Part shown: positions 28,902 through 59,067 of the stretch, in pieces
Position numbering within the stretch: the first letter of the stretch is position 1
Layout: each line of letters opens with the position of its first letter
Source: Candidatus Thorarchaeota archaeon
Lineage (GTDB): Archaea; Asgardarchaeota; Thorarchaeia; Thorarchaeales; Thorarchaeaceae
Assembly: GCA_016933575.1 (NCBI GenBank)
Contig: JAFGAR010000040.1
Span: forward strand, 133,265 to 197,264
Reading direction: 5' to 3'
Length of the DNA: 64,000 bases
Made by a program: the position numbers and the translations under genes
Notes under the pieces: generated by a model
Database searches by the model: none
What the model saw: only the letters and a program-made list of their open reading frames with translations
What the model was told of the DNA's origin: nothing

Positions 28902-30086
28902 TCACAGCTTAATGTTCGTATATCTTGCTCCGTTTCCTGTATTAAGAAGAATTACTTCTTCATCAAAATCGATTGCACCCGATTCAATTAGATTTCTAAG
29001 GCCTGCAATCCCCACAGCGCTCTCAGGACAGATATCAAGTCCTTCTAATTTGCCTACCATCCTTCTAATTGGAGCAATATCCTGATCTGCCACAGCAACT
29101 GCTCCTCCTCCTGATTTTCTAATAGCATTAAGTATCTCTCTCCCAGCAAAAGGACTTGGAACTCGAAGGCCAAGTGCCGTTGTGTCTCCATTCACCCAAG
29201 GTTCAAGATTATCAGTACCCTTTTCAATTGCTCTGACGACAGGTGCACATCCACCACTTTGTGCAGCATAGAGTCTTGGTCTTTCACTTCCAATCAAACC
29301 CAATGCCTCTAATTCTTCAAATGCTTTCCAAATTCCGATGATTGCCGTTCCTCCACCTGTGGGACATATTATGACATCCGGAACAGACCACCCCATCTGT
29401 TCAGAGATTTCAAATCCGAGAGTCTTCTTTCCCTCAACTCTGTATGGTTCTTTCGTAGTGGAGAGATCAGTCCAATCTCCATTTCGTTTTCGCATTTCTT
29501 GCCCTGCTTCAGATATCGTTCCTTTTACACGAACTATTTCTGCACCAAATAAGGTACATTGCTCGAAGAATGGTTCTGGAGTATCATCAGGCATGAAGAT
29601 GTGAGCTGATACACCCGCAGCTGCACTATACGCACTTGTTGATACAGCGGCATTTCCAGCTGATGGAAGACCAAAACTCTTGGCACCTAATTCGAGGCTT
29701 TTTGATATTGCAACACAGAGACCCCTATCTTTGAAACTCCCTGTCGGATTCTGAGCCTCATCTTTGATTCTTAACATCCTCAAACCAAGATGCTTTCCCA
29801 ATTGTCTCGAGAGAAGAAGAGGTGTCCACCCTTCACCAAGGCTAACAACGTATGATGGGGATTTCACAGGTAGCAGTTGAGAGTATCTCCACATTGAGTT
29901 CATCTCAGATGGAAATACCTCAGTATCAATTTCCTCTCTGACACCACTCATATCATATACTACAAACAAGGGAGACCCACATACACAATATGTTGCTAAA
30001 TTGTCTGCTGAGTGTTTCCTTCTGCATTGCGGACACTCAAGATGGGAAATATGAGAAATCAATAGAAATACTCCACCTCTAGACAT
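28902..30086 (-). CDS. thrC: Threonine synthase (PLP, fold type II)
   Basis: N-terminal Cys knuckle, SLGEGWTPL, NPTGSFKDRG, PTGGG, NTG. Confidence 0.85.
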   Translation of the reverse strand: MSRGGVFLLISHISHLECPQCRRKHSADNLATYCVCGSPLFVVYDMSGVREEIDTEVFPSEMNSMWRYSQLLPVKSPSYVVSLGEGWTPLLLSRQLGKHLGLRMLRIKDEAQNPTGSFKDRGLCVAISKSLELGAKSFGLPSAGNAAVSTSAYSAAAGVSAHIFMPDDTPEPFFEQCTLFGAEIVRVKGTISEAGQEMRKRNGDWTDLSTTKEPYRVEGKKTLGFEISEQMGWSVPDVIICPTGGGTAIIGIWKAFEELEALGLIGSERPRLYAAQSGGCAPVVRAIEKGTDNLEPWVNGDTTALGLRVPSPFAGREILNAIRKSGGGAVAVADQDIAPIRRMVGKLEGLDICPESAVGIAGLRNLIESGAIDFDEEVILLNTGNGARYTNIKL

Positions 30087-43759: not shown

Positions 43760-44275
43760 GTGACACCTTTGCCTTCACAATTGATGGTTGACATGAATCG
43801 TTGTACTGGTTGTCGCATCTGCGAATTAGCTTGCTCTGCAAAACATGAGGGCAAATTTCAGCCAAGTCTCGCACGGCTGAAGATTGTACGATATGATGAT
43901 CTGGGTCTTGATATCCCTAATGTATGTGGGCCCTGCGAGACTGCACCGTGCGTTGATATCTGTCCCGTTTATGCGATGCGTCGAGATCCTATCTCAAAGA
44001 TGACCTTTATTGATGAAGACAAATGCATCCTCTGCAAATCATGCGTTGGTGCTTGTGTAAATGGAGTCATCCTTCTCGATACAGTGAGAATGCGGATCAT
44101 CAAATGTGATCATTGTGGTGGAGACCCTGAATGTGCAAAGGCTTGCCCAACTGGTGCAATAAGTTACCAACCTGTTACATCCCTTTCCTCAGTAGATCGT
44201 CATGGAAAGATATTGACCTATCTAAAGGAAATTGACCGTACAGAGAAAACACAGGAAATGAGTGGAGCTGAGTGA
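43760..44275 (+). CDS. 4x[4Fe-4S] ferredoxin subunit (DmsB/HydN-like)
   Basis: CTGCRIC...C, CGPC....C...CP, CILCKSC...C, CDHC.....C...CP. Confidence 0.93.
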   Translation: MTPLPSQLMVDMNRCTGCRICELACSAKHEGKFQPSLARLKIVRYDDLGLDIPNVCGPCETAPCVDICPVYAMRRDPISKMTFIDEDKCILCKSCVGACVNGVILLDTVRMRIIKCDHCGGDPECAKACPTGAISYQPVTSLSSVDRHGKILTYLKEIDRTEKTQEMSGAE

Positions 44276-46167
44276 GCTTGACTGGTGGTTATACAGGAAA
44301 AATCTTGCGTGTCAACCTTACAGACGAAAACTTCCAAGTGGATTCCCTCCCAAAAGAATGGATTCGTGATTTTATTGGAGGCGATGGTTTTGGAGCAAAA
44401 CTCCTTTTCGATGAAGTCCCTGCAAAGACAGACCCTTTGAGTCCAAGTAACAAGCTCATAATTGGTACAGGACCTATCACTGGGACAATGTGGCCCATGA
44501 GTGGAAGGACCGTCTTTATTTCAAAAGCACCTCTAACAGGTATCTGGGGCGAAAGCCACGTGGGTGGACACCTTGGACCTGAATTGAAATATGCTGGATA
44601 TGATATGCTTGTTGTTGAGGGAAAGTCTGAGAAACCTGTCTATATCAGTATTGAAGATTCTAATCTACAGATTCTGGATGCAAAGCATCTATGGGGCTTG
44701 ACAACGGACAAGACGACTAGTGAAATAAAGACTGAACATCATAATCCCGATATTCAAGTAGCAGCAATTGGTCCGGCTGGTGAACGACTTGTACGTTATG
44801 CATCTGTTATTGTGAATTATGCACGAGCCGCTGGTAGAACTGGAATGGGCGCAGTACTTGGGAGTAAGAATGTGAAGGCAATTGCCATTAGAGGTACCGG
44901 TGCTGTCGAAGTTCATGACCACGAAGGTTTTGTCAACCTAGCCAAGGAGGCACACTCTAAGGTTCGGATAAATCCCCAAGCTCGAGAAATGGGAAAGTAC
45001 GGTACTTGGGTATTAACCGCTGTAAAACAGGAGATTGGTGAACTACCCACCTATAACCATCAAACTGGTGTCTTTGATGGTTGGGAGAAACTTAGTGGTG
45101 ATTACATTCGTCCTCGATATACTGTAGCTGATAGAGCTTGCTTTGGTTGCAGTCTCGGATGCAAGAAGGTGAATTATATTGCAGAAGGACCATTCAAAGG
45201 CACATTAGAAGAAGGTCCTGAATACGAAGGCTTGATGGCTTTTGGCAGTTCACTTGGTATTGACGACTATGCGACAACACTGAAAGCAAATCAGATATGC
45301 AACAAATATGGAATGGATATCATATCTGCAGGAGCAACAATCGGGTTTGCAATAGAGTCATTTGAAAAAGGTGCTATAACTGAGGAAGATACGGGTGGAT
45401 TAAGGCTCCAGTGGGGCGATAGAGAGCAAATCATTCACCTCTTAGAAATGATTGCTAAACGAGAGGGTTTTGGAGAGCTTCTTGCAGAAGGAAGTAAGAA
45501 AGCCGCTGAAACTTTGGGACGAGGTACCGACAAATTTGCGATTCACGTTAAAGGTATGGAAGTCTCAGGACAAGATGGTCGGACTCATAGAAGTATTGCT
45601 CTTGGCCACGCAACGGGAGCTCGGGGTGCAGACCATCTACGAAGCCTAGTGGTTGTTGATCAATTGGGCTACGAGGATGTTGCTGCAAAGAGATGGGGAG
45701 CTGATAAACTTCCAGAAATCATCGATCCATATACTGAGAAGTACAAAGCGAATGCTGTATTTGAGTCAGAGAATGCCTATTGCATTCGGGATACACTCAT
45801 TGTGTGTTGGTATTCTGTTTCGTGGCCCCCAATTTTTTGGATGGAAGATTTCGCTAAAATGCTACCTCTTGCAACAGGTGATTCATTTTTTGGTAAGGTG
45901 GAAAATCTAACGAAGATTGCTGAACGTCAAGTCACTCTAAAACGGCTCTTCAATGCTAGAGAGGGGATTACAAAGAAGGATGACCAGCTTCCTGATCGAT
46001 TTACTAAAGATCCAATGCCTGAAGGTCCTGGTAAAGGGCAAATAGTAAATCTTGAACCTATGCTGCGTGACTACTACTCATTAAGAGGTTGGGATTTAGA
46101 AACCGGACTACCAACTACAAAGACTCTGAAACGATTATCATTAGAGTGGGCTGCCGCCCACCCATAA
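44272..46167 (+). CDS. aor: Tungsten aldehyde:ferredoxin oxidoreductase family
   Basis: GYTGKILRVNLT, KAPLTG, GRTGMGAV, CFGCSLGC, EYE, RGADH; 4-nt overlap with the ferredoxin gene. Confidence 0.93.
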   Translation: MSLTGGYTGKILRVNLTDENFQVDSLPKEWIRDFIGGDGFGAKLLFDEVPAKTDPLSPSNKLIIGTGPITGTMWPMSGRTVFISKAPLTGIWGESHVGGHLGPELKYAGYDMLVVEGKSEKPVYISIEDSNLQILDAKHLWGLTTDKTTSEIKTEHHNPDIQVAAIGPAGERLVRYASVIVNYARAAGRTGMGAVLGSKNVKAIAIRGTGAVEVHDHEGFVNLAKEAHSKVRINPQAREMGKYGTWVLTAVKQEIGELPTYNHQTGVFDGWEKLSGDYIRPRYTVADRACFGCSLGCKKVNYIAEGPFKGTLEEGPEYEGLMAFGSSLGIDDYATTLKANQICNKYGMDIISAGATIGFAIESFEKGAITEEDTGGLRLQWGDREQIIHLLEMIAKREGFGELLAEGSKKAAETLGRGTDKFAIHVKGMEVSGQDGRTHRSIALGHATGARGADHLRSLVVVDQLGYEDVAAKRWGADKLPEIIDPYTEKYKANAVFESENAYCIRDTLIVCWYSVSWPPIFWMEDFAKMLPLATGDSFFGKVENLTKIAERQVTLKRLFNAREGITKKDDQLPDRFTKDPMPEGPGKGQIVNLEPMLRDYYSLRGWDLETGLPTTKTLKRLSLEWAAAHP

Positions 46168-49141: not shown

Positions 49142-51784
49142 TTGAGTAGTAGGATTCGAAGAGATGTACAGACACAGAGTACAGTAGAGGCTATACGGAT
49201 GGCATCAGCATCCGTTCTGGGATCTACAACCGGATTGGGATATCCAGTGGGTAGTGCAATGGGCGTTGGCAGTATGCTTGAGCAGCATTCTGACACAGTA
49301 TCAATGAATATTGCTCCCCTCATATTCTCTATTCGTGATACACTCATGTCTTCAGAAGGCTTGGAGCTACTGTCTATAGAATGGAACTTGGAACGCAAGC
49401 CCGGTCCCGGTGTATTACCAGAGCAATTAGTCGTCACTGGTGGTTCTGAAGGAGGAGTGGGCTCTCATGCATGTATTCTTACATGGGAGAAAGGAGTTGT
49501 TGATCCTTTCAAAATTGACCAGTATGTTAGTACTCTCTCTAAGAAAATTGGCGATATCGAGTCTGCGGTAATAAATAATGAGATGAATTATGAACTTGAA
49601 GGACTAGCGATAATTCAACGATTTGTTGATAGACTTAATCGTGTCCTTTTCGTTGATATGATTGACCGAAGATTCCAAGGATCTTGGGATTCATTTCAAA
49701 TAAAATCCGAACATGTTGATATTGAAGCAATTGCCAAAATGTCTGTATATGATGATTTTACATTATTGCCTCCTGGATTGAAAATATCCGCTCGAAAGAG
49801 CTTGGATTTTAGGCTCCCTTCATTTACCAGAGGAGATTTGGTGGACCACTTCCAGCATAGAGTATTGACTCCAAGTGCTATCGACACCTTGACTAGAATT
49901 GTTCCTGAAACAGGTCAAGCTATTCTTGAAGAAATGAATACCTACGCCTATGCTATAGAAGAAACTGATGTTGTGGAAGGCGTGATACTAGTATTGAAGG
50001 AGTATCTTCAGACTGATTCAGTGACTCTAACAGATTTTGAAATAACTAAACCAAAAATTGCGGAGTTTTCAAATCACTTGAAAGATACCATTGATGCGCT
50101 GGATAGTATCGTGGAACAACACATTAGTTCCGGTAAGAATCTCGGTGTCGAGGAGCATGAAAATGAGCTTCTACATGAAATACAAGATAAAAGTGACCGA
50201 TTTGATGGTGTCAAAAGTACACTTGCAATAGCTCTTATCAAGGAATTAATGAAATCTGTTAGGCGTGAAGCAATCGATGCAGAAGAAGTACGTGCTTGGC
50301 AGCTTAAGAGCACATTGAGTTATGCGGTGGCACATGCTAAGAATGTAAGTAATTACTTTTCAGAGGAACTCGATCAATATCTTGTTTCATCGGCTGCTAA
50401 GAGTGCTTTCTTCACTGCGTTACGCGATTTTCGCCAAGAAATTATCCAGAAGGGATTGGACTCCACTGAAACAATGCTCTTTGAGAAATTCTATGCTGAA
50501 GTGCGTTCACAACTAAATGCTGCTTTTTCAAGAAAGACGTATGGAGGGCTCCAGTACAGTGGTTTCAAACAGATGATGGATGCAATCACACGAGAGATGA
50601 TTGATTCCTTCAAGCATATTGATGTCTGGAATCTGATTGACTTTTCTGATGTTGCTGACATTGCTCGTTCTGAGATTCAAAAGAAACATTCAGTGCCATC
50701 ACCTGATGGAGCTCTAACAGCTGATGGCAAAGCTCTCATGGATTTATTGACTGAATTTCAAACCGCAGTTTCTGATATTATTCCTGATGTTGCTGATACA
50801 ATATTATCAAAACCATTGATTCGCCGGATGATTGAAAAAATGAAATCCGACGGAACAAAGTTGGTAGATGAACTGGCTTCAGCCCTTGAAGGAGCTGGAG
50901 AAAAATCAGATGAATGGAGAAAGGAAGCTATGAGCTGGGTTGAAGGTTTCAGAGAGAGTGTCGATGAAACCAAATCTCAATCTGAAAGCTTCTTAACACT
51001 CCTCCAATTTGTTCACGAGCTACTTGGTGAGGTCGTATCTGCAAGTGCTATGGCTGATCGTGTCAAGATTGAAGCAGATAAGAGGGAGGCTGTCTTTCAG
51101 ACAAAGTTCAATGAATGGCAATCAATCTGTACTGAAATTGAATCGGAGAATGAAAAGATTCGGGAACGGAGGAGAAGACGGGAAGAATTGATTTCAGAAC
51201 TAACAAATCAGTATGACGCAGATATGAAGTCTTATGAACAGGCAGTCCGGGAGTATCAGGGAAAACTCGAACAAAGAAAAAGTGCCGAGGAAGCCGCCCA
51301 GGATGAGGTCATTGGCACAGTTGAGTTACCACCTTTACCTGTTGAACCACTCAAACCGAAGGATATACAGCCAAGAATCGATGAAATCAAGAATGAGTAT
51401 CCTGCAGAATCTGAGAAGTCCTTTCCACCTGAACCTCAACCTGAACCAAGCTTACGCTATCATGTTGAACTTCGTGACTTGTTATATGATAAATTAACCG
51501 AGCTCAAAGAACGCGAAACTGATATGGAAGAAACATTTGCAAAGCGGATCTTACGGCTTCAATCTGAAGGATTGGGAGTCGCTTCACAAATAAGTCTGAA
51601 TATTGGTGATGATTTCTTAGAGTATCTTAAGGGGTCAAGAATCCGAAGTCTAGGAAGGTTATTTCCTAGAATTTCCCGAGTATTCCTGAGGGATCCGAAA
51701 GAGCCAGATTTACTATTTCTAGTTACATACGAGCATTATGATGGAAATCTAACAGCATCAATAGGGAGTACTTTTCTGAGGTGA
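49142..51784 (+). CDS. Large hypothetical helical/coiled-coil protein
   Basis: 880-aa ORF, GGAGG SD; long coiled coil with Pro-rich segment; no recognisable catalytic motif. Confidence 0.85.
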   Translation: MSSRIRRDVQTQSTVEAIRMASASVLGSTTGLGYPVGSAMGVGSMLEQHSDTVSMNIAPLIFSIRDTLMSSEGLELLSIEWNLERKPGPGVLPEQLVVTGGSEGGVGSHACILTWEKGVVDPFKIDQYVSTLSKKIGDIESAVINNEMNYELEGLAIIQRFVDRLNRVLFVDMIDRRFQGSWDSFQIKSEHVDIEAIAKMSVYDDFTLLPPGLKISARKSLDFRLPSFTRGDLVDHFQHRVLTPSAIDTLTRIVPETGQAILEEMNTYAYAIEETDVVEGVILVLKEYLQTDSVTLTDFEITKPKIAEFSNHLKDTIDALDSIVEQHISSGKNLGVEEHENELLHEIQDKSDRFDGVKSTLAIALIKELMKSVRREAIDAEEVRAWQLKSTLSYAVAHAKNVSNYFSEELDQYLVSSAAKSAFFTALRDFRQEIIQKGLDSTETMLFEKFYAEVRSQLNAAFSRKTYGGLQYSGFKQMMDAITREMIDSFKHIDVWNLIDFSDVADIARSEIQKKHSVPSPDGALTADGKALMDLLTEFQTAVSDIIPDVADTILSKPLIRRMIEKMKSDGTKLVDELASALEGAGEKSDEWRKEAMSWVEGFRESVDETKSQSESFLTLLQFVHELLGEVVSASAMADRVKIEADKREAVFQTKFNEWQSICTEIESENEKIRERRRRREELISELTNQYDADMKSYEQAVREYQGKLEQRKSAEEAAQDEVIGTVELPPLPVEPLKPKDIQPRIDEIKNEYPAESEKSFPPEPQPEPSLRYHVELRDLLYDKLTELKERETDMEETFAKRILRLQSEGLGVASQISLNIGDDFLEYLKGSRIRSLGRLFPRISRVFLRDPKEPDLLFLVTYEHYDGNLTASIGSTFLR

Positions 51785-51789
51785 AATGA

Positions 51790-54228
51790 ATGGCAAGTTC
51801 TTGGGTCTTAAAAACACGACAGGGCAGTGAGGCAGGAAAAGAGATTCTTCTTAGAGAGGCTCTTGTAACTCATATGCGAAGCACTCGAGATCGTCAGCTC
51901 TTTGCTGAAATTCTGAGTGAAACTCAACCTCTGGAGGATGTATTTTCATTCTTTGCATCATTCTACCTCCATAGCTACCAAGGAATTCGATTGCTTAGTG
52001 CCTCTGATTCTCCAGAACTCACAGGCGAAGGCAAGGATGAATTAGGTCATGAAGAACGGCGTCAATTGGAACTGGAAGTGCGCCAATTATTTGGAGACAA
52101 ACAAAGAGAAGAAGTTGACATCGCTCGAATTACCAGTGAATTGACATTAGAACTATGTGATAGGTTGGTCGATACTACACCTTCTCCAGAAATCTTTCAG
52201 ACAATAATTGAGATTGTCAAGAAGTATCTTGGGAAGATTCCATCCGAGTATTCTCCTAATCATGACATTGATCTTATCATTGAGATAACAGGTTGGGGGA
52301 AAGAATGGAGAAATGACCTTTACATGAAAGCCTCAGGACTGAAAGAGAGTGCTTTATCACTAAGAGAAGAATTGCTTAGAGAACATCCCTCTGAAGTTCC
52401 TGAGACCACTGTTCTAAAGATGGGATTAGAGCGAATCTATGGTCGAGTAGAGTACGCTAAGAGTCGATTAGTCACTACCCAAATTCCACCTCGAGGCTGG
52501 GATGAAATCACTAAAGCAATTTCAGAACGATTCTGCAAGAACGGGGAAGAATTGAATGGTGTTAAGCAGGCACATAGAATCAGACTAGAATTTCTTGAAG
52601 CAATTGATGAGGAGTATGACATTCCCACAACAATTGAAGACTATGAACGACGACTTGGTAATGTAGTGATTGGACCTGTTGCGGACATGCTATCCAATAA
52701 ATCAGATTTCATCTTGGATACTCTATCTCATCTACTCAGTATAGAGTCTGATGATTTGAAGGCACAGCTTCGCAGGAAAGGCATTGATGATATGTCCATC
52801 ATTGGGCAAGGTTTGAAATCACTTACAGAAGAAGAAGAAGAAGTTCAAACCGGACCCCAAATCAGTAAAGATGAAATGGAAATGCTTGAGCGTTCATTGA
52901 AGGCTTTGGAAAAGCTTGAGAACACTCTTGAACGACCCGTCAAAGGATTATTACGTTCAAGAGGAATGAGAGCTTCTGAACTTGACAAGATATCCATCAA
53001 TCTTTTCTTAAAAGACCATTCGAGTTTGGTCGGGATTGAGATTGAAGTTCTTGAGGAAATGAAGAAGAAGATGCGAGTTCCTCCTCCAGAAGAAATGAAA
53101 CGGCTAATCGAGATCCGAGAACAAGTAAAGAGTGGAGCTTTGAGTTCTCTGGGTATTTCCACTGCACAAGATTTCAGTAAACAGAGAATCGAAGAGGAAA
53201 CTATTGCCTCGATTCGTCTGGATATAATCTGGCATTTCACCACGAGTATTATCACAAATCTAACACGTGTTGTCGAATCCTACATTCGCTCTAAACAGGA
53301 TCTACTTAGGATAAAGGCTCTTTTGAAGAGTATATACGAGGACACAGATGTCACCCTTCAATTTCTAAGAGAGGAGATACTGATAGATCTAGCTTCAATG
53401 CGTATCTATGAGATGAAAATAGTACATCCCGAACTCGATGCAACCGGAATTTGCACTTGGATGCATGCTCGTCTATCAAGTAAGGATATGATGGCTGCAA
53501 GGAAGGACCTTGAGAATACTCCAAGTCCTGCTTTCGAAGGCATTGTGGACAAACCTCTTGAAATGGATAGCCTCGAATATGATAACTATGCAATAGCCTT
53601 TGACATAATGCAACGTTTTCTGAAGAAGGAACGGCTCGAGAAAATTGCCAAGGAAGAGTACGCATTTGAAGTAAAGCAGAAGGAGCAGGTGGCAATTAGC
53701 TCAAAGAAGGAATCAATCGATGTTTTGATGTATCTACATAACAAAGCTCGCACGGTGTTTCGTGCAATAAGTAGAGTTGGCACAAAAGGTCTTGAATGGT
53801 CTCCAACTGATACAACTAAGTGTGCTAATCTCTTGGCATACTACATCAAAACAAATCGAGGGAGAAAAATCTGTAGTGCTTGCGGTACTGTACCTAAGGA
53901 CAATAAATGTCCGCAACATGGTACCTCTTTCATCAAAGATGCTAATGATATGGAAAACCTATCGATATTCATGATGAGGTCCCTCTATGAAATAAAGGAT
54001 GGGCTTGCCGCTGGTGCTGAGCAGATGCCCTGGGATAAGGCTAAAATAAGCATAGACCGCGAGATTGGAATCCTAAAGCGGAAGGGTAAATTGACATCAA
54101 AGACTAATTTGAAAGAGTTACTTCCTGGTGAGATCAACTATATTGTCGGTCCCGCTATTTGTGAGATTGTTGGCAAATACTTCAATGAATCATTGGTCTA
54201 TGCTGCACGTCGCGCAGACATTGCATGA
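51790..54228 (+). CDS. Large hypothetical helical protein with Zn ribbon
   Basis: 812 aa, 5 nt after previous gene; CSACG...CPQHG. Confidence 0.85.
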   Translation: MASSWVLKTRQGSEAGKEILLREALVTHMRSTRDRQLFAEILSETQPLEDVFSFFASFYLHSYQGIRLLSASDSPELTGEGKDELGHEERRQLELEVRQLFGDKQREEVDIARITSELTLELCDRLVDTTPSPEIFQTIIEIVKKYLGKIPSEYSPNHDIDLIIEITGWGKEWRNDLYMKASGLKESALSLREELLREHPSEVPETTVLKMGLERIYGRVEYAKSRLVTTQIPPRGWDEITKAISERFCKNGEELNGVKQAHRIRLEFLEAIDEEYDIPTTIEDYERRLGNVVIGPVADMLSNKSDFILDTLSHLLSIESDDLKAQLRRKGIDDMSIIGQGLKSLTEEEEEVQTGPQISKDEMEMLERSLKALEKLENTLERPVKGLLRSRGMRASELDKISINLFLKDHSSLVGIEIEVLEEMKKKMRVPPPEEMKRLIEIREQVKSGALSSLGISTAQDFSKQRIEEETIASIRLDIIWHFTTSIITNLTRVVESYIRSKQDLLRIKALLKSIYEDTDVTLQFLREEILIDLASMRIYEMKIVHPELDATGICTWMHARLSSKDMMAARKDLENTPSPAFEGIVDKPLEMDSLEYDNYAIAFDIMQRFLKKERLEKIAKEEYAFEVKQKEQVAISSKKESIDVLMYLHNKARTVFRAISRVGTKGLEWSPTDTTKCANLLAYYIKTNRGRKICSACGTVPKDNKCPQHGTSFIKDANDMENLSIFMMRSLYEIKDGLAAGAEQMPWDKAKISIDREIGILKRKGKLTSKTNLKELLPGEINYIVGPAICEIVGKYFNESLVYAARRADIA

Positions 54229-54321
54229 TTTCAATATTTGATTTGACTTGTGATTTTTTCAACAAGTGTGCAAACGAAGCCCATTTATACGAGCCAGCTC
54301 GTGCAAGGTCTTGGTGATTTC

Positions 54322-55719
54322 GTGAATAAGTTTGTGCCAAAAGGGGTTATGCCTGCGCTTGTGACGCCATTCACTAGAGACGGCGATATTAGTGAGGATG
54401 GTTTCAAACAAGTTATTGATTATACTATCAGTAAAGGTGCAACTGGAGTCGTTCCAGCTGGAACAACAGGAGAATTCTCCTACATGCGAACCGAGGAACG
54501 AAAGAAGCTCTTGAAACTCACAATTGAATATGTTGATGGTCGTGTTCCAATTATCGCTGGTACTGGTCAGCACAGCACAAAGGCATCAGTCGATTTAACC
54601 AAATATGCAAAGGATATCGGTTGCGATGCTGCTTTAGTAATCTCACCATATTTCCTAAGACCTACTGATAAAGGGTATTATGAGCATTATGAAACAATTG
54701 CTAGGAAGGCTGATTTACCAGTAATTATGTACAATATACCTCAATGCACACTTGGAGTACTCACCTCGAATGTTGTTGAAGATTTAGCTGAAGTAGATAA
54801 TATCGTAGGCATTAAAGATAGTAGCGGCAATGTCCCATACATCCTTGAACTTATTCAGAAAGTTAAAGGTAAGATCGAAGTCATTGTTGGTGCAGATGAA
54901 TGTTTCATGTCTGCAGTTGCTGCAGGATCAAATGCAGCAATTCTTGCATCGGCTAATCTTATTCCTCACATCTGGCTTGATATTATGAAACACGTGAGAG
55001 CGGGTAAGATTGATGAAGCTGCCAAGCTCCAAAATTCTGCTCAGACCTTGGCTAGAATCATCTTGAAGAATGGAGCAGCACCACCAGTTAAAGCTGGTCT
55101 AAGAATGATGGGTATCAATGCTGGAAAAAGTAGAATGCCTCTTGATTCAGGAGGAACTTTAACTCCAGAGATAAAAGAAGAAGTTCGTCTTGAACTTGAG
55201 AAACTGGGAGTTCTGGAGCGTGCCAAGTCACCTCCTATTCAAGAAGAAATTCACATCTTAGAAATACTCAAAGAACAGGGAATATCAATTGAGGACGACT
55301 CGAACATACTGGATGCTTCAGCAGCTAACGATACAGTTTCTGTCGGTATTGTCTCAGGAGCTAAGAATGGAGCACTAGGTCGTGCTTTTGTAAGACTGTT
55401 GACAATGGCAAAGACAGGTCATGAAGCTCTGACAGTAATTCTCGAGCCCAATCTACCAGTACGTCCGAGTAGCTTGATGTTGCCCACAAGAAAGATCGAA
55501 TCAATGAGACAAGCATCACTCTTCTACGGACCTGTGCAGTCCGGTGCAGCTCGTGCTATAGCGCATTTTCTTGAAAAACGAAAAATACCTGGAAAATCGA
55601 TCAAGAATGATATCATGATTATGGCGTTAGACATCGACTTGAACACCAGAGACAGGCGTGATCTCACTGCTGCAACACAGAGTGCTGTTGAAACCGCTTT
55701 AGCAGAGATATGGAGGTAG
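54322..55719 (+). CDS. DapA/NAL-family aldolase fused to a Fae-like domain (paralog A)
   Basis: GTTGE, YNIP, GIKDS; C-terminal GHEALTVILEPNL.VRP..L, FYGPVQ (Fae motifs). Confidence 0.85.
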   Translation: MNKFVPKGVMPALVTPFTRDGDISEDGFKQVIDYTISKGATGVVPAGTTGEFSYMRTEERKKLLKLTIEYVDGRVPIIAGTGQHSTKASVDLTKYAKDIGCDAALVISPYFLRPTDKGYYEHYETIARKADLPVIMYNIPQCTLGVLTSNVVEDLAEVDNIVGIKDSSGNVPYILELIQKVKGKIEVIVGADECFMSAVAAGSNAAILASANLIPHIWLDIMKHVRAGKIDEAAKLQNSAQTLARIILKNGAAPPVKAGLRMMGINAGKSRMPLDSGGTLTPEIKEEVRLELEKLGVLERAKSPPIQEEIHILEILKEQGISIEDDSNILDASAANDTVSVGIVSGAKNGALGRAFVRLLTMAKTGHEALTVILEPNLPVRPSSLMLPTRKIESMRQASLFYGPVQSGAARAIAHFLEKRKIPGKSIKNDIMIMALDIDLNTRDRRDLTAATQSAVETALAEIWR

Positions 55720-57204
55720 ATGAGTATGTATGAAGGTAATTATCGGTTTCAAGGTGTCTATCCCGCACTTGTGACACCCTTTGATGAGAATGGAATCAAT
55801 AAGAAACAATATCGTGGACTGATTGAATATGTGATTAAAGCTGGTGCCACTGGAATTGTACCCTGTGGAACTACTGGTGAATTTACTAGCATGAAATTTG
55901 ATGAAAAGGTCGAAGCTATCAAGATTGCTTGTGAGGTGGCAAAAGGACGTGTTCCCGTTCTTGCAGGAACTGGTGCAGCATATACTAGTGACGCAATCAA
56001 ACTCACACGTCGAGCAGCTGAACTCGGTGCATCTGCAGCTTTAGTTGTATCTCCATACTTTCTAAAACCCTCTTCGAAAGAAATCTACGAGCATTTTGAG
56101 AAAGTTGCAAATAACAGTGAGATACCAATCATTGTCTATAATATACCTCAAGTCACTGGTGTTCCAATACATTGGACGCTCGTTGATGGATTACGAGAGA
56201 TTGATGGAATTGCTGGGATGAAAGATTCAAGTGGTGACCTAATCAATCTAACAACAATTCTAGTTCGTCGACCTGAAGGATTCCAAGTTATGGTTGGCCA
56301 CGATGAGGTAGCTCTTCCTGCCCTTGCAACAGGTTGTGACGGAGCAATTCTTGCCAGTGCTAATGTGTTCCCTGATAGATACATCAGGATGCAGGCAGCA
56401 CTAGCAACAGGTGATCTCAAAGGAGCAATGATTATTCAGCGAAGCATTCAGAAAACTGTCCGCATCTTTGTAAACAAGGGCGGCGGAATGGCAGTCAAAG
56501 CTGCGCTTAATATGATTGGTGTTCCTGTTGGTGATGCTAGACGTCCTCTCCAAATCGGTGACTCTCTTGACTACGGTGATCTTGATGAGCTTCGTGCTTG
56601 TCTCGAAGACTTACAGATGATTCCACGAGGTCCTGTCACGTTCAAGATGCATGGTCGTTCACTTGTCGCGGAGAATTATCCCAAGGCCGTGGGTATGGTC
56701 CCTGATACAATAGAGGATCTCACTCTTCTTCATGGAGAAGCTCTCTTTGGAGGGGATAGTGATGTAGCCCATGTGGATCTAGTTCTCGGTATAAAAGACG
56801 GTCCAATGAGTGAGGCTCTTGTTAATGCTGGTAAGATAGTCGACGACACACATCCTTCGAATGTCATCAAAGACCTCGAGTTGACGACTGTCTTTGCTCC
56901 AACTGTCACTATAACATCTGAGAGTCACAAGAAGATGGTGTATGAGGTTGCACAAAAGGCTGTGGCAGATGCTGTGAAGAGGACAATTACCGACATGATC
57001 ATCCCTGAAGAGATGATTAAGGATCTTGTCCTAGCTGTGAATGTCTTTGTTCACCCAAGTGCAGCTAATCCAAAACGAGTGCACATCAATAATTTCATTG
57101 CTACAAGGCATGCGATACGCCGTGCTATTGAAGGTAGACAGAGTGTTGATGAGATTATCAAAAGAAAAGATTCAGCTAGGCATCCATTTGCCTACGGACC
57201 CTAG
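55720..57204 (+). CDS. DapA/NAL-family aldolase fused to a Fae-like domain (paralog B)
   Basis: GTTGE, YNIP, GMKDS; C-terminal GEALFGG..VAHVDL.LG.KDGP, VFVHP.A, N..AT..AI.RA, RHPF (Fae motifs). Confidence 0.88.
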   Translation: MSMYEGNYRFQGVYPALVTPFDENGINKKQYRGLIEYVIKAGATGIVPCGTTGEFTSMKFDEKVEAIKIACEVAKGRVPVLAGTGAAYTSDAIKLTRRAAELGASAALVVSPYFLKPSSKEIYEHFEKVANNSEIPIIVYNIPQVTGVPIHWTLVDGLREIDGIAGMKDSSGDLINLTTILVRRPEGFQVMVGHDEVALPALATGCDGAILASANVFPDRYIRMQAALATGDLKGAMIIQRSIQKTVRIFVNKGGGMAVKAALNMIGVPVGDARRPLQIGDSLDYGDLDELRACLEDLQMIPRGPVTFKMHGRSLVAENYPKAVGMVPDTIEDLTLLHGEALFGGDSDVAHVDLVLGIKDGPMSEALVNAGKIVDDTHPSNVIKDLELTTVFAPTVTITSESHKKMVYEVAQKAVADAVKRTITDMIIPEEMIKDLVLAVNVFVHPSAANPKRVHINNFIATRHAIRRAIEGRQSVDEIIKRKDSARHPFAYGP

Positions 57205-57885: not shown

Positions 57886-59067
57886 ATGAATCAGAACCTT
57901 ATTAGCGTAGAAGACTTCAGGTCTGAATGGGTGAATACTCTCATGAACCAAGCAAGAGTCCTGTCACTTCTGAAAGAGCTAATTGCTACAAACTCTGAAA
58001 ATCCTCCAGGACATGAAGCTGAGGTTGCAAAAGTACTTCGCGACCATATGGAGGCTCATGGGATTTCATGTGTTTCAATCGGTTCTAACGAACGTCCAAA
58101 CCTAATCTTTTCTAGCCATGATGGAGAACGAGGGTCTCTTGTAATGCATGGACATATGGACACTGTTCCTGTCGGAAATCTTGAGAATTGGTCATACAAT
58201 CCATTCAGTTCCGAAATTAAAAACGGATTACTCTATGGTCGAGGATCTTGTGATATGAAAGGACCTGTAGCCGCGATAGCAGAGGCTCTCATTATCTATA
58301 CTGAGGAGCGACACAAGCACCCTCTCTTAGTTCTTAATACATCTGATGAAGAGAGTGGGTGTTCAGGTGCTGAAGAAGTAGCAAAGAGTAACGAGCTCAA
58401 AGGTGTAAAATACGGAGTCTGTGCTGAACCTACCAATCTCCAAATTCTTGTAGGCGAAAAAGGTCTCTTCTGGTCCCGTGTGATTGCCAATGGAAAATCC
58501 GCCCATGGTTCTCGACCCGAGGAAGGTGTTAATGCAATCTCTCTGTGTATGGATGCTATCAGAATTCTCACATCTAATCAATATCCATACGAAACGGACA
58601 AGCATCTGGGTTTCCCAACAATGAATATTGGAACCATTAAGGGTGGCATAAAGGTCAATGTTGTTCCTGATAATTGCGAAGCTCAATTGGATATGCGAAT
58701 AGTAAAGGGTCAGACCCCTGAAGCATTGATCGATCTTATGAATGAACGTCTATATGTTGCTGGATTATCAGACCGAGTGAATGTGCAGTACATCCATGGG
58801 AAACCTGCAGTCTTGACTCCTGAAGATTCAGATATTGTCAAGATTGCTGCTAATGCAGTAGAATCAGTGACAGGAACTCGTCCTGAATTGGGTGTTGCTA
58901 CCTATGGTACTGATTGTTCTGTCTTGCAGCCAAAGAATGGCATTCTTCATGTGATATGTGGTCCTGGTTCCATTGAGCAGGCTCATCAGCCAGATGAATT
59001 CATTCACTTGGATCAGCTTTACCAGTCAGTAGATATCTATCTCGCCATTGCAAGGTCGTTTGACTAA
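57886..59067 (+). CDS. M20 ArgE/DapE-family deacylase
   Basis: GHMDTV, GRGSCDMKG, DEE, EP, AHGS, QAHQPDE. Confidence 0.93.
   Translation: MNQNLISVEDFRSEWVNTLMNQARVLSLLKELIATNSENPPGHEAEVAKVLRDHMEAHGISCVSIGSNERPNLIFSSHDGERGSLVMHGHMDTVPVGNLENWSYNPFSSEIKNGLLYGRGSCDMKGPVAAIAEALIIYTEERHKHPLLVLNTSDEESGCSGAEEVAKSNELKGVKYGVCAEPTNLQILVGEKGLFWSRVIANGKSAHGSRPEEGVNAISLCMDAIRILTSNQYPYETDKHLGFPTMNIGTIKGGIKVNVVPDNCEAQLDMRIVKGQTPEALIDLMNERLYVAGLSDRVNVQYIHGKPAVLTPEDSDIVKIAANAVESVTGTRPELGVATYGTDCSVLQPKNGILHVICGPGSIEQAHQPDEFIHLDQLYQSVDIYLAIARSFD

Follow-up and report, generated by a model that had tools for sequence, protein, structure and literature searches.

Two abutting genes in a 64,000-nucleotide stretch of a Thorarchaeota (Asgard) metagenome-assembled genome (contig JAFGAR010000040.1; genome 85.5% complete; the whole stretch is referred to as the window) each code for an aldolase of the dihydrodipicolinate synthase (DHDPS) family fused to a C-terminal Fae-like domain. 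We suggest that the two proteins, A and B, are probably the subunits of one heteromeric and bifunctional aldolase-Fae enzyme with a split composite site, in which an aldol step would be joined to methylene-tetrahydromethanopterin (methylene-H4MPT). In silico, a heteromer with a divided site has good support; what we propose on its chemistry is a hypothesis.

In the model that we propose, each subunit would carry a catalytically complete class I (Schiff-base lysine) pyruvate-type barrel of the DHDPS/N-acetylneuraminate lyase family, distinct from DHDPS itself. The EPNL loop and the YGPxQ glutamine of the Fae pocket would come from A, and its GEAL strand, AHxDL histidine and C-terminal RHPF arm from B; pairing of A with B would then yield one complete H4MPT/formaldehyde site per pair, and the two proteins would probably work only together. 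The arrangement would have originated in one old tandem duplication of a single-gene fusion with a whole Fae domain, a form still present in Lokiarchaeia and Bathyarchaeia, and the faces that are not used in the A:B contact would have decayed after this duplication. The features of the pair in the window are:

54322..55719, + strand: gene A, 465 aa from the GTG at 54322 (alternative GTG at 54250); aldolase of the DHDPS family with the "PNL/Gln-face" half of an Fae domain
54340..55188, + strand: aldolase barrel of A (aa 7-289), with GTTGEF at 54460-54477, YNIPQCT at 54730-54750 and the Schiff-base Lys165 in GIKDSSG at 54808-54828
55333..55704, + strand: Fae-like half domain of A (aa 338-461), with VSVGI at 55336-55350, EPNLPVRP at 55444-55467 and YGPVQ at 55525-55539
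55712..55722, + strand: A/B junction, with GGAGG at 55712-55716, stop TAG of A at 55717-55719 and start ATG of B at 55720-55722
55720..57204, + strand: gene B, 494 aa; aldolase of the DHDPS family with the "His-face" half of an Fae domain
55747..56553, + strand: aldolase barrel of B (aa 10-278), with GTTGEF at 55867-55884, YNIPQVT at 56137-56157 and the Schiff-base Lys168 in GMKDSSG at 56215-56235
56734..57189, + strand: Fae-like half domain of B (aa 339-490), with GEAL at 56734-56745, AHVDL at 56767-56781, VFVHPSA at 57043-57063, NNFIAT at 57088-57105 and RHPF at 57178-57189

Fae motifs are divided between A and B

Pfam finds the DHDPS domain (E=1e-79) and then the Fae domain (E=7e-25, profile positions 12-135 of 159) in A, and likewise DHDPS (E=1e-72) followed by Fae (E=2e-29, profile positions 2-158 of 159) in B. 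The gathering score of 27 for Pfam Fae (PF08714) is exceeded by both proteins (A, 88.3 bits; B, 103.4 bits), and both miss the 118.05-bit cut-off of TIGR03126, the Fae equivalog model (A, 80 bits; B, 116.7 bits). A and B are ~33-35% identical to each other. The GGAGG starts 8 bases 5' of the ATG of B, which is directly abutted by the TAG of A, a layout that fits translational coupling. GTTGEF, YNIP and KDSSG are kept in both aldolase halves (49 A, 56 B and 46 single-gene proteins checked); thus, as judged from these motifs, neither aldolase barrel is degenerate, unlike the Fae halves.

Fae motifs were read from an alignment to Fae (PDB 1Y5Y), other Fae proteins and Fae-Hps proteins. A retains EPNLPVRP (aa 375-382) and YGPVQ (aa 402-406), has VSVGI at the AHxDL position and DIDL at the VFxH position, and has neither a GEAL strand nor an RHPF arm at its C-terminus. 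B retains GEAL (aa 339-342), AHVDL (aa 350-354), VFVHPSA (aa 442-448), NNFIAT (aa 457-462) and RHPF (aa 487-490); in this protein, a deletion of five residues replaces the PNL loop, and YEVAQ replaces FGPAQ. When seven motifs are scored as present (1) or absent (0) in the order GExL, AHxDL His, PNL loop, FGPxQ Gln, VFxH, NxY and HPF arm, A scores 0011000 and B 1100111, and the full set results only from the sum of both chains. The initial annotation of the window had described two abutting paralogs, each with a DHDPS-family barrel and a C-terminal Fae-like domain, and a reciprocal loss of Fae motifs; the open reading frame calls and the Pfam matches confirm the former, and every detail of its motif list is borne out by the alignment. 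Across the Fae domains of 48 A-type and 46 B-type proteins, the invariant residues coincide with the retained motifs.

B aligns to 1Y5Y over 155 residues (E=3e-18) and A over 99 residues (E=8e-9), with His351 of B at the position of Fae His22 and Gln406 of A at that of Fae Gln88. The structure paper on Fae reportedly places the active site between adjacent subunits, proposes His22 as acid catalyst and describes a flip of Gln88 and an ordering of the C-terminal arm. We take His351 of B, Gln406 of A and the RHPF arm of B to be the counterparts of the proposed acid catalyst, of the glutamine that flips upon binding and of the arm that becomes ordered, respectively.

Single-gene fusions are intact and tandem pairs are split

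DHDPS-Fae fusions in other lineages were collected in an exhaustive search with the Fae part of B, and the proteins obtained were aligned for a scan of genomes. Across archaea, the fusion is present in the genomes of no fewer than 246 species, which belong to Thorarchaeota, Bathyarchaeia, Lokiarchaeia, Hodarchaeota and Baldrarchaeum. The seven motifs were scored in all fusion open reading frames of 77 loci. Among the 46 loci with a single fusion (Lokiarchaeia, Bathyarchaeia and Hodarchaeota), 42 score 1111111, three score 1101111, with only the PNL pattern missing, and one is an odd read-through frame (locus L095). By contrast, all tandem pairs score 0011000 in the upstream gene and 1100111 or, at two loci, 1100101 in the downstream gene; these pairs are from 22 Thorarchaeota loci, three further lineages (L051, L052 and L053), a Bathyarchaeon (L092) and Baldrarchaeum (L100). 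None of the 77 loci has a tandem pair with two whole Fae domains or a lone half.

In a full-length tree, the B-type proteins form one clade (Shimodaira-Hasegawa-like approximate likelihood ratio test, SH-aLRT, 99), as do 15 of the 16 rows labelled A-type (SH-aLRT 99); the 16th is L095, a read-through single-copy gene of Bathyarchaeia that the motif rule had misfiled and that groups with the singles. In trees of the aldolase columns only, which leave out the columns of the Fae trait itself, a constraint that keeps A or B together is likelier than the free quick tree (approximately unbiased test, p-AU 0.67 and 0.66). The free quick tree joined two long L051 branches, and because the constrained trees fit better, we judge this joining to be long-branch attraction. 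With A monophyletic, B monophyletic and the constrained trees favored, the sequence data fit one old duplication that was followed by spread and do not call for repeated convergence.

Complementary Fae faces are predicted to meet in one interface

The Fae domains of A and B were modelled as an A:B complex, each with its own alignment, alongside three controls. The complex scores 0.90, compared to 0.14 for the best of the three controls; in calibration, the mark reached here was attained by 58 of 80 solved complexes and by 2 of 110 mismatched pairs. At least 83% of the contacts agree between runs, and the partner predicted local distance difference test (pLDDT) value is at least 86. In the modelled interface, residues 78-86 (EPNL) and 107-112 (YGPxQ) of A face residues 39-43 (GEAL), 52 and 54-56 (AHxDL) and 187-191 (RHPF) of B (model positions), and the Asn of the PNL loop of A touches the Ala-Leu of the GEAL strand of B. 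The retained motifs of both chains are, thus, predicted to meet in one interface (the initial annotation had proposed modelling A with B as a check), and it is the orientation of the partners that is the informative part of this model.

The faces that would not be used in this contact are partly deleted and less conserved. A is without an equivalent for 15 of the 45 interface residues of B, and B for 5 of the 44 of A; conservation of the unused and the used face is 0.65 and 0.78, respectively, in A and 0.76 and 0.84 in B. A single directional A:B contact with one composite pocket therefore fits the model and the conservation pattern, and ring or homomeric Fae contacts do not. The initial annotation had put forward an obligate A:B pairing with one composite Fae site, and this idea finds its support, all of it in silico, in the identical split in all tandem pairs of at least five lineages, the intact singles, the interface model and the deletion of faces.

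A and B are a conserved unit in Thorarchaeota

In 43 species-level loci, gene A immediately precedes B in every case in which the contig extends far enough. In Thorarchaeota, the tandem recurs in ~35 loci, wherever enough DNA is present, with orthologues that are 65-78% (A) and 72-87% (B) identical to the window copies and an intergenic gap of 0-24 nt in all orthologous loci. Among 61 Thorarchaeota genomes, each at least 80% complete, 57 have a Fae match, and in 53 of these 57 there are exactly two matches, which are the pair. In the remaining four, which have a single match, contig ends cut the locus; the paralogs, which the initial annotation had suggested looking for on their own, are never found apart. 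Neither a stand-alone Fae nor a Fae-Hps was found in the 61 genomes. In a search of 5.8 billion proteins, B-type proteins make up the first ~110 rows listed, and nearly all of the named B-type matches listed are "4-hydroxy-tetrahydrodipicolinate synthase" from Thorarchaeota.

The synteny around the pair is also conserved in Thorarchaeia and comprises two large family-less proteins, A, B, an M20 deacylase and AlaX, with a LarB-like gene also among the neighbors. Because the whole region is conserved across Thorarchaeia, the M20 deacylase, LarB-like and AlaX neighbors are uninformative with respect to function.

Association with H4MPT metabolism and the proposed chemistry

The genome of the window encodes Mch (414 bits). 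In a sample of 151 Asgard genomes tallied by family, the counts of genomes with a Fae domain and with Mch are almost identical, both in families in which they are frequent (35/37 and 36/37 in f1; 33/34 and 33/34 in f9) and in those in which they are rare or absent (0/18 and 0/18 in f5; 0/9 and 0/9 in f19; 1/3 and 1/3 in f20), and the aldolase-Fae fusion is confined to Mch-bearing families. The link to H4MPT-dependent one-carbon (C1) metabolism that the initial annotation had drawn is, thus, supported by Mch in the genome itself and by family-by-family tracking across Asgard.

We hypothesize that the aldol step makes or takes formaldehyde and is joined to methylene-H4MPT. In the simplest case, the reaction would be pyruvate + methylene-H4MPT + H2O <-> 4-hydroxy-2-oxobutanoate + H4MPT. 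Fae chemistry is specific for formaldehyde, and, to our knowledge, 4-hydroxy-2-oxobutanoate is the only aldol product from which a pyruvate aldolase would yield formaldehyde (textbook chemistry). Because an Fae site on a pyruvate-type class I aldolase would have no aldol partner to serve other than formaldehyde, our guess is that 4-hydroxy-2-oxobutanoate is the substrate or product.

Some of the pathway context hints at synthesis rather than cleavage. Homoserine dehydrogenase (hom) was found in 4/61 Thorarchaeota genomes, ThrC is over the cut-off in 51/61 and canonical thrB in 0/61, and the absences of hom, thrB and asd are absences in metagenome-assembled genomes, in which alternative enzymes may exist. 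TIGR02535, the alternative homoserine kinase, matches at ~300 bits in 51/61 genomes, which is below its cut-off of 446 bits and probably represents the related phosphoglycerate mutase. In the genome of the window, neither homoserine dehydrogenase nor thrB nor dapB was found. A role in amino acid catabolism, as originally envisaged, receives no support, and an anabolic reading accounts at least equally well for these pathway holes. A canonical threonine synthase is encoded in the window at 28902-30086 on the - strand (PRK08197, 492 bits).

More tentatively, and with considerable doubt on our side, we speculate that the fusion is the entry of a C3 + C1 route to four-carbon amino acids that would take the place of the aspartate pathway in Thorarchaeia and might also do so in Lokiarchaeia and Bathyarchaeia. 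In such a route, pyruvate and methylene-H4MPT would give 4-hydroxy-2-oxobutanoate, which would be converted to homoserine or O-phosphohomoserine and then to threonine by ThrC. This would explain why ThrC is kept in most Thorarchaeota genomes without homoserine dehydrogenase, without ThrB and mostly without Asd. A missing step might be supplied by a ~428-aa TIM-barrel protein, described below, that is encoded beside many single-gene fusions.

Alternative explanations

Several observations weigh against the explanation preferred here. At the FGPAQ position, the Thorarchaeota form of B retains a Gln (YEVAQ). The high score of the complex model may partly reflect the model's memory of, or likeness to, the solved Fae homopentamer (1Y5Y). 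Nothing in the sequences of A and B singles out 4-hydroxy-2-oxobutanoate. Both proteins pass the cut-off of the NCBIfam dapA model (TIGR00674, 206.15 bits; A, 223.8 bits; B, 227.1 bits), and the genome of the window makes aspartate semialdehyde, as it has an operon for Asd and aspartokinase.

We consider it unlikely that the Fae domains are catalytically dead and serve as a hetero-oligomerization or regulatory module, perhaps with an H4MPT-binding effector site, on an ordinary pyruvate aldolase that does not handle formaldehyde. The scores of both domains below the Fae equivalog cut-off are in line with such a module, as is the loss of conserved Fae segments in both A and B, and a high-scoring interface is equally compatible with a purely structural role. 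However, the invariant residues go beyond packing residues and are active-site signatures of Fae (the AHxDL His, the GPxQ Gln, the PNL loop and the HPF arm), the motifs of A and B sum to the full set of the single-copy forms, and the fusion occurs only in families with Mch.

An enzyme with the composite site could also act on another 2-oxoacid or aldehyde, for instance in a PanB-like transfer of a hydroxymethyl group from methylene-H4MPT to 2-oxoisovalerate or in the cleavage of a 2-keto-3-deoxy sugar acid; we hold this to be quite unlikely. In favor of it, the YNIPQ(C/V)T signature matches no assayed subfamily and, except for dapA, all NCBIfam subfamily models are below their cut-offs; the other PF00701 subfamily models (N-acetylneuraminate lyase, KDG aldolase, KdgD and HpaI-like) are far below (nanA, 156 bits vs a cut-off of 382; Arch_KDGaldase, 112 vs 390 bits). 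By contrast, the PanB-like variant is weakened because the genome has a canonical PanB (383 bits), so that there is no gap to be filled, and the formaldehyde specificity of Fae argues for the pyruvate aldol product named above.

It is very improbable that A and B are independent homo-oligomeric enzymes with different jobs and that their adjacency is just a trace of the duplication. DHDPS-family enzymes are usually homotetrameric, and the two aldolase halves of A and B look complete, as this explanation would have it; however, A and B are never apart and are spaced by 0-24 nt in all lineages, and each Fae half is without invariant parts of the pocket, so that a homomeric contact would need the deleted face.

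The annotation of A and B as DapA is not supported by the sequence data. DHDPS has an arginine (R138 in Escherichia coli) that binds the carboxylate of aspartate semialdehyde; in the alignment to 1XKY (ynvpgRs), Cys takes its place in A (YNIPQCT) and Val in B (YNIPQVT), and one or the other is at this position in all 151 family members checked. In the 61 Thorarchaeota genomes, dapB is over the cut-off in none and asd in 14, compared to 57 with the pair; dapB was also not found in the genome of the window, which is 85.5% complete. Because the Arg is missing family-wide, dapB is over the cut-off in none of these 61 genomes and asd is present in only 14, the DapA label lacks support, in agreement with the original suggestion that the proteins are probably not DHDPS, for which the missing Arg138 equivalent and the dapB tally speak in silico. 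The third DHDPS-family gene of the genome is of a different type (GNTGEF and VGVKY) and, on its motifs, is not a DapA either. No consumer of aspartate semialdehyde (Hom or DapB) is recognizable in the genome of the window. Thus, it is hardly credible that A and B are true 4-hydroxy-tetrahydrodipicolinate synthases with an accessory domain, since the passed TIGR00674 cut-off, the nearest solved structures of both barrels, which are all DHDPS, and the presence of Asd and aspartokinase are set against the replacement of the aspartate-semialdehyde-binding Arg in 151/151 members and the tallies of dapB and asd.

The operon mentioned above (L126; G000:C131:21915-25433) has genes for a 242-aa family-less protein, for an Asd of the archaeal type (416 bits) and for an ACT-domain aspartokinase.

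Relation to known enzymes and implications

A close analog of the proposed A/B enzyme is Fae-Hps (NF009833; 5,6,7,8-tetrahydromethanopterin hydro-lyase/3-hexulose-6-phosphate synthase) of methanogens and many Asgard archaea, which also has Fae fused to a formaldehyde-handling aldolase in H4MPT organisms and which is present in other Asgard families of the same 151-genome sample as frames of ~400-460 aa. However, the partner of Fae is an N-terminal class I Lys-Schiff-base DHDPS barrel in A and B and a C-terminal OMPDC-type Hps in Fae-Hps; the Fae site of A and B would be split over two paralogous chains; and A and B score 67 and 94 bits with NF009833, compared to a cut-off of 274 bits, and contain no PF00215. 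With Fae itself (PF08714, TIGR03126, EC 4.2.1.147; Methylorubrum extorquens, PDB 1Y5Y/1Y60), A and B have the fold and signature motifs in common. By contrast, Fae is a stand-alone homopentamer of ~170-aa chains with both faces on each chain, whereas A and B would each have one face together with an aldolase. The barrels of A and B are 30-40% alike to DapA (TIGR00674, EC 4.3.3.7; e.g. PDB 1XKY and 1DHP) and keep GTTGE, the Tyr of YNxP and the Schiff-base Lys, but differ in lacking the Arg138 equivalent, in having PYF in place of PYY in the window copies, in the added C-terminal Fae domain and in belonging to a lineage without DapB. The A/B enzyme would work in the manner of Fae-Hps without belonging to that family, and on its own neither A nor B can be classed as Fae or DapA.

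The previously undescribed DHDPS-Fae fusions that Lokiarchaeia, Bathyarchaeia and Hodarchaeia encode in a single gene (e.g. P0125; loci L077-L125) are of the same family; they are 40-48% identical to B in the Fae part and share the aldolase signature of YNIPQ(C/V)T, GTTGEF and KDSSG. They are encoded by one gene with a whole Fae domain, usually beside the gene for the ~428-aa protein, while the Thorarchaeota pair would be the duplicated and subfunctionalized form.

We found no paper on a DHDPS-Fae fusion in full-text literature searches; the one possibly relevant match (PMC9723716) mentions stand-alone Fae only. New here are the rule across phyla that singles are intact and tandems split, the A and B clades, the analysis of deleted faces, the co-occurrence with Mch, the tallies of dapB, hom and thrB in Thorarchaeota genomes, and the ~428-aa neighbor. 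Several hundred archaeal genes are at present called DapA, a label that is wrong on present evidence and that introduces a false "lysine pathway" step into metabolic reconstructions of Asgard archaea and Bathyarchaeia. The pair would also be a clear example from nature of an active site between subunits that was divided among paralogs after a duplication, with the intact form of the single-gene ancestor still alive in sister lineages. If the proposed reaction is correct, nature would have its own version of the pyruvate-formaldehyde aldol step of engineered formaldehyde-assimilation pathways, and the H4MPT branch of the Wood-Ljungdahl pathway would have a new link to central carbon or amino acid metabolism in the closest archaeal relatives of eukaryotes. 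This aldol step is not known to have been used outside such engineered pathways.

Neighboring genes and other observations

At 36 loci from two phyla, the gene for the ~428-aa protein is next to the single-gene fusion: it is directly upstream and on the same strand in 24 Lokiarchaeia and Hodarchaeota loci and divergently upstream in 12 Bathyarchaeia loci. It is also near the Bathyarchaeia tandem pair at L092, and the Thorarchaeota genome of the window has an orthologue, 68% identical, elsewhere in the genome. Examples of this gene, and a threonine synthase gene beside it in Thorarchaeia, are at:

L104:3798-5081: gene for the ~428-aa protein, Lokiarchaeia
L087:3626-4912: gene for the ~428-aa protein, Bathyarchaeia
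L129:1492-2769 (G000:C51:1765-3033): gene for the ~428-aa protein, genome of the window
L127:1159-2649, - strand: gene for a 497-aa ThrC::PadR protein

The ~428-aa protein has a mean column identity of 78% across Thorarchaeota, Lokiarchaeia, Bathyarchaeia and Hodarchaeota (alignment A5) and no sequence match in Pfam, NCBIfam or the PDB. An AlphaFold2 model (pLDDT 68) is a generic TIM barrel, for which Foldseek returned nothing at E <= 0.001 and VIA-align returned generic TIM-barrel matches only (Z ~9). The protein is present in 87/151 Asgard genomes, also in families that have neither Mch nor the fusion (f5 and f19), and the fusion is present without it in f12 and f13. We therefore rejected it as an obligate third partner of the fusion.

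In at least 14 Thorarchaeia genomes, the gene for the 497-aa threonine synthase (PRK08197, 338 bits), which has a C-terminal PadR-like winged-helix domain, lies divergently beside the ~428-aa gene. A contig filed as "Candidatus Nanopelagicaceae bacterium" (L114, DATKTW010000104.1) carries the 428-aa gene and the aldolase-Fae fusion in the order seen in Lokiarchaeia and is probably a mis-binned archaeal contig. Protein P0144 of the representative library is 5740 aa long and has 19 separate Fae-like stretches.

In the window, two large proteins without a Pfam family and rich in charged helical sequence are encoded on the + strand at 49142-51784 (880 aa) and 51790-54228 (812 aa); they are directly upstream of the A-B pair in nearly all Thorarchaeota loci. 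An M20 deacylase of the ArgE/DapE family at 57886-59067 (+ strand; TIGR01910, 247 bits) is downstream of the pair in most Thorarchaeota loci, with inserts of variable length in between. An aldehyde:ferredoxin oxidoreductase (AFOR_N + AFOR_C) is encoded 8 kb upstream of A and B, at 44272-46167 (+ strand); aldehydes, formaldehyde among them, are conceivable substrates of this enzyme.

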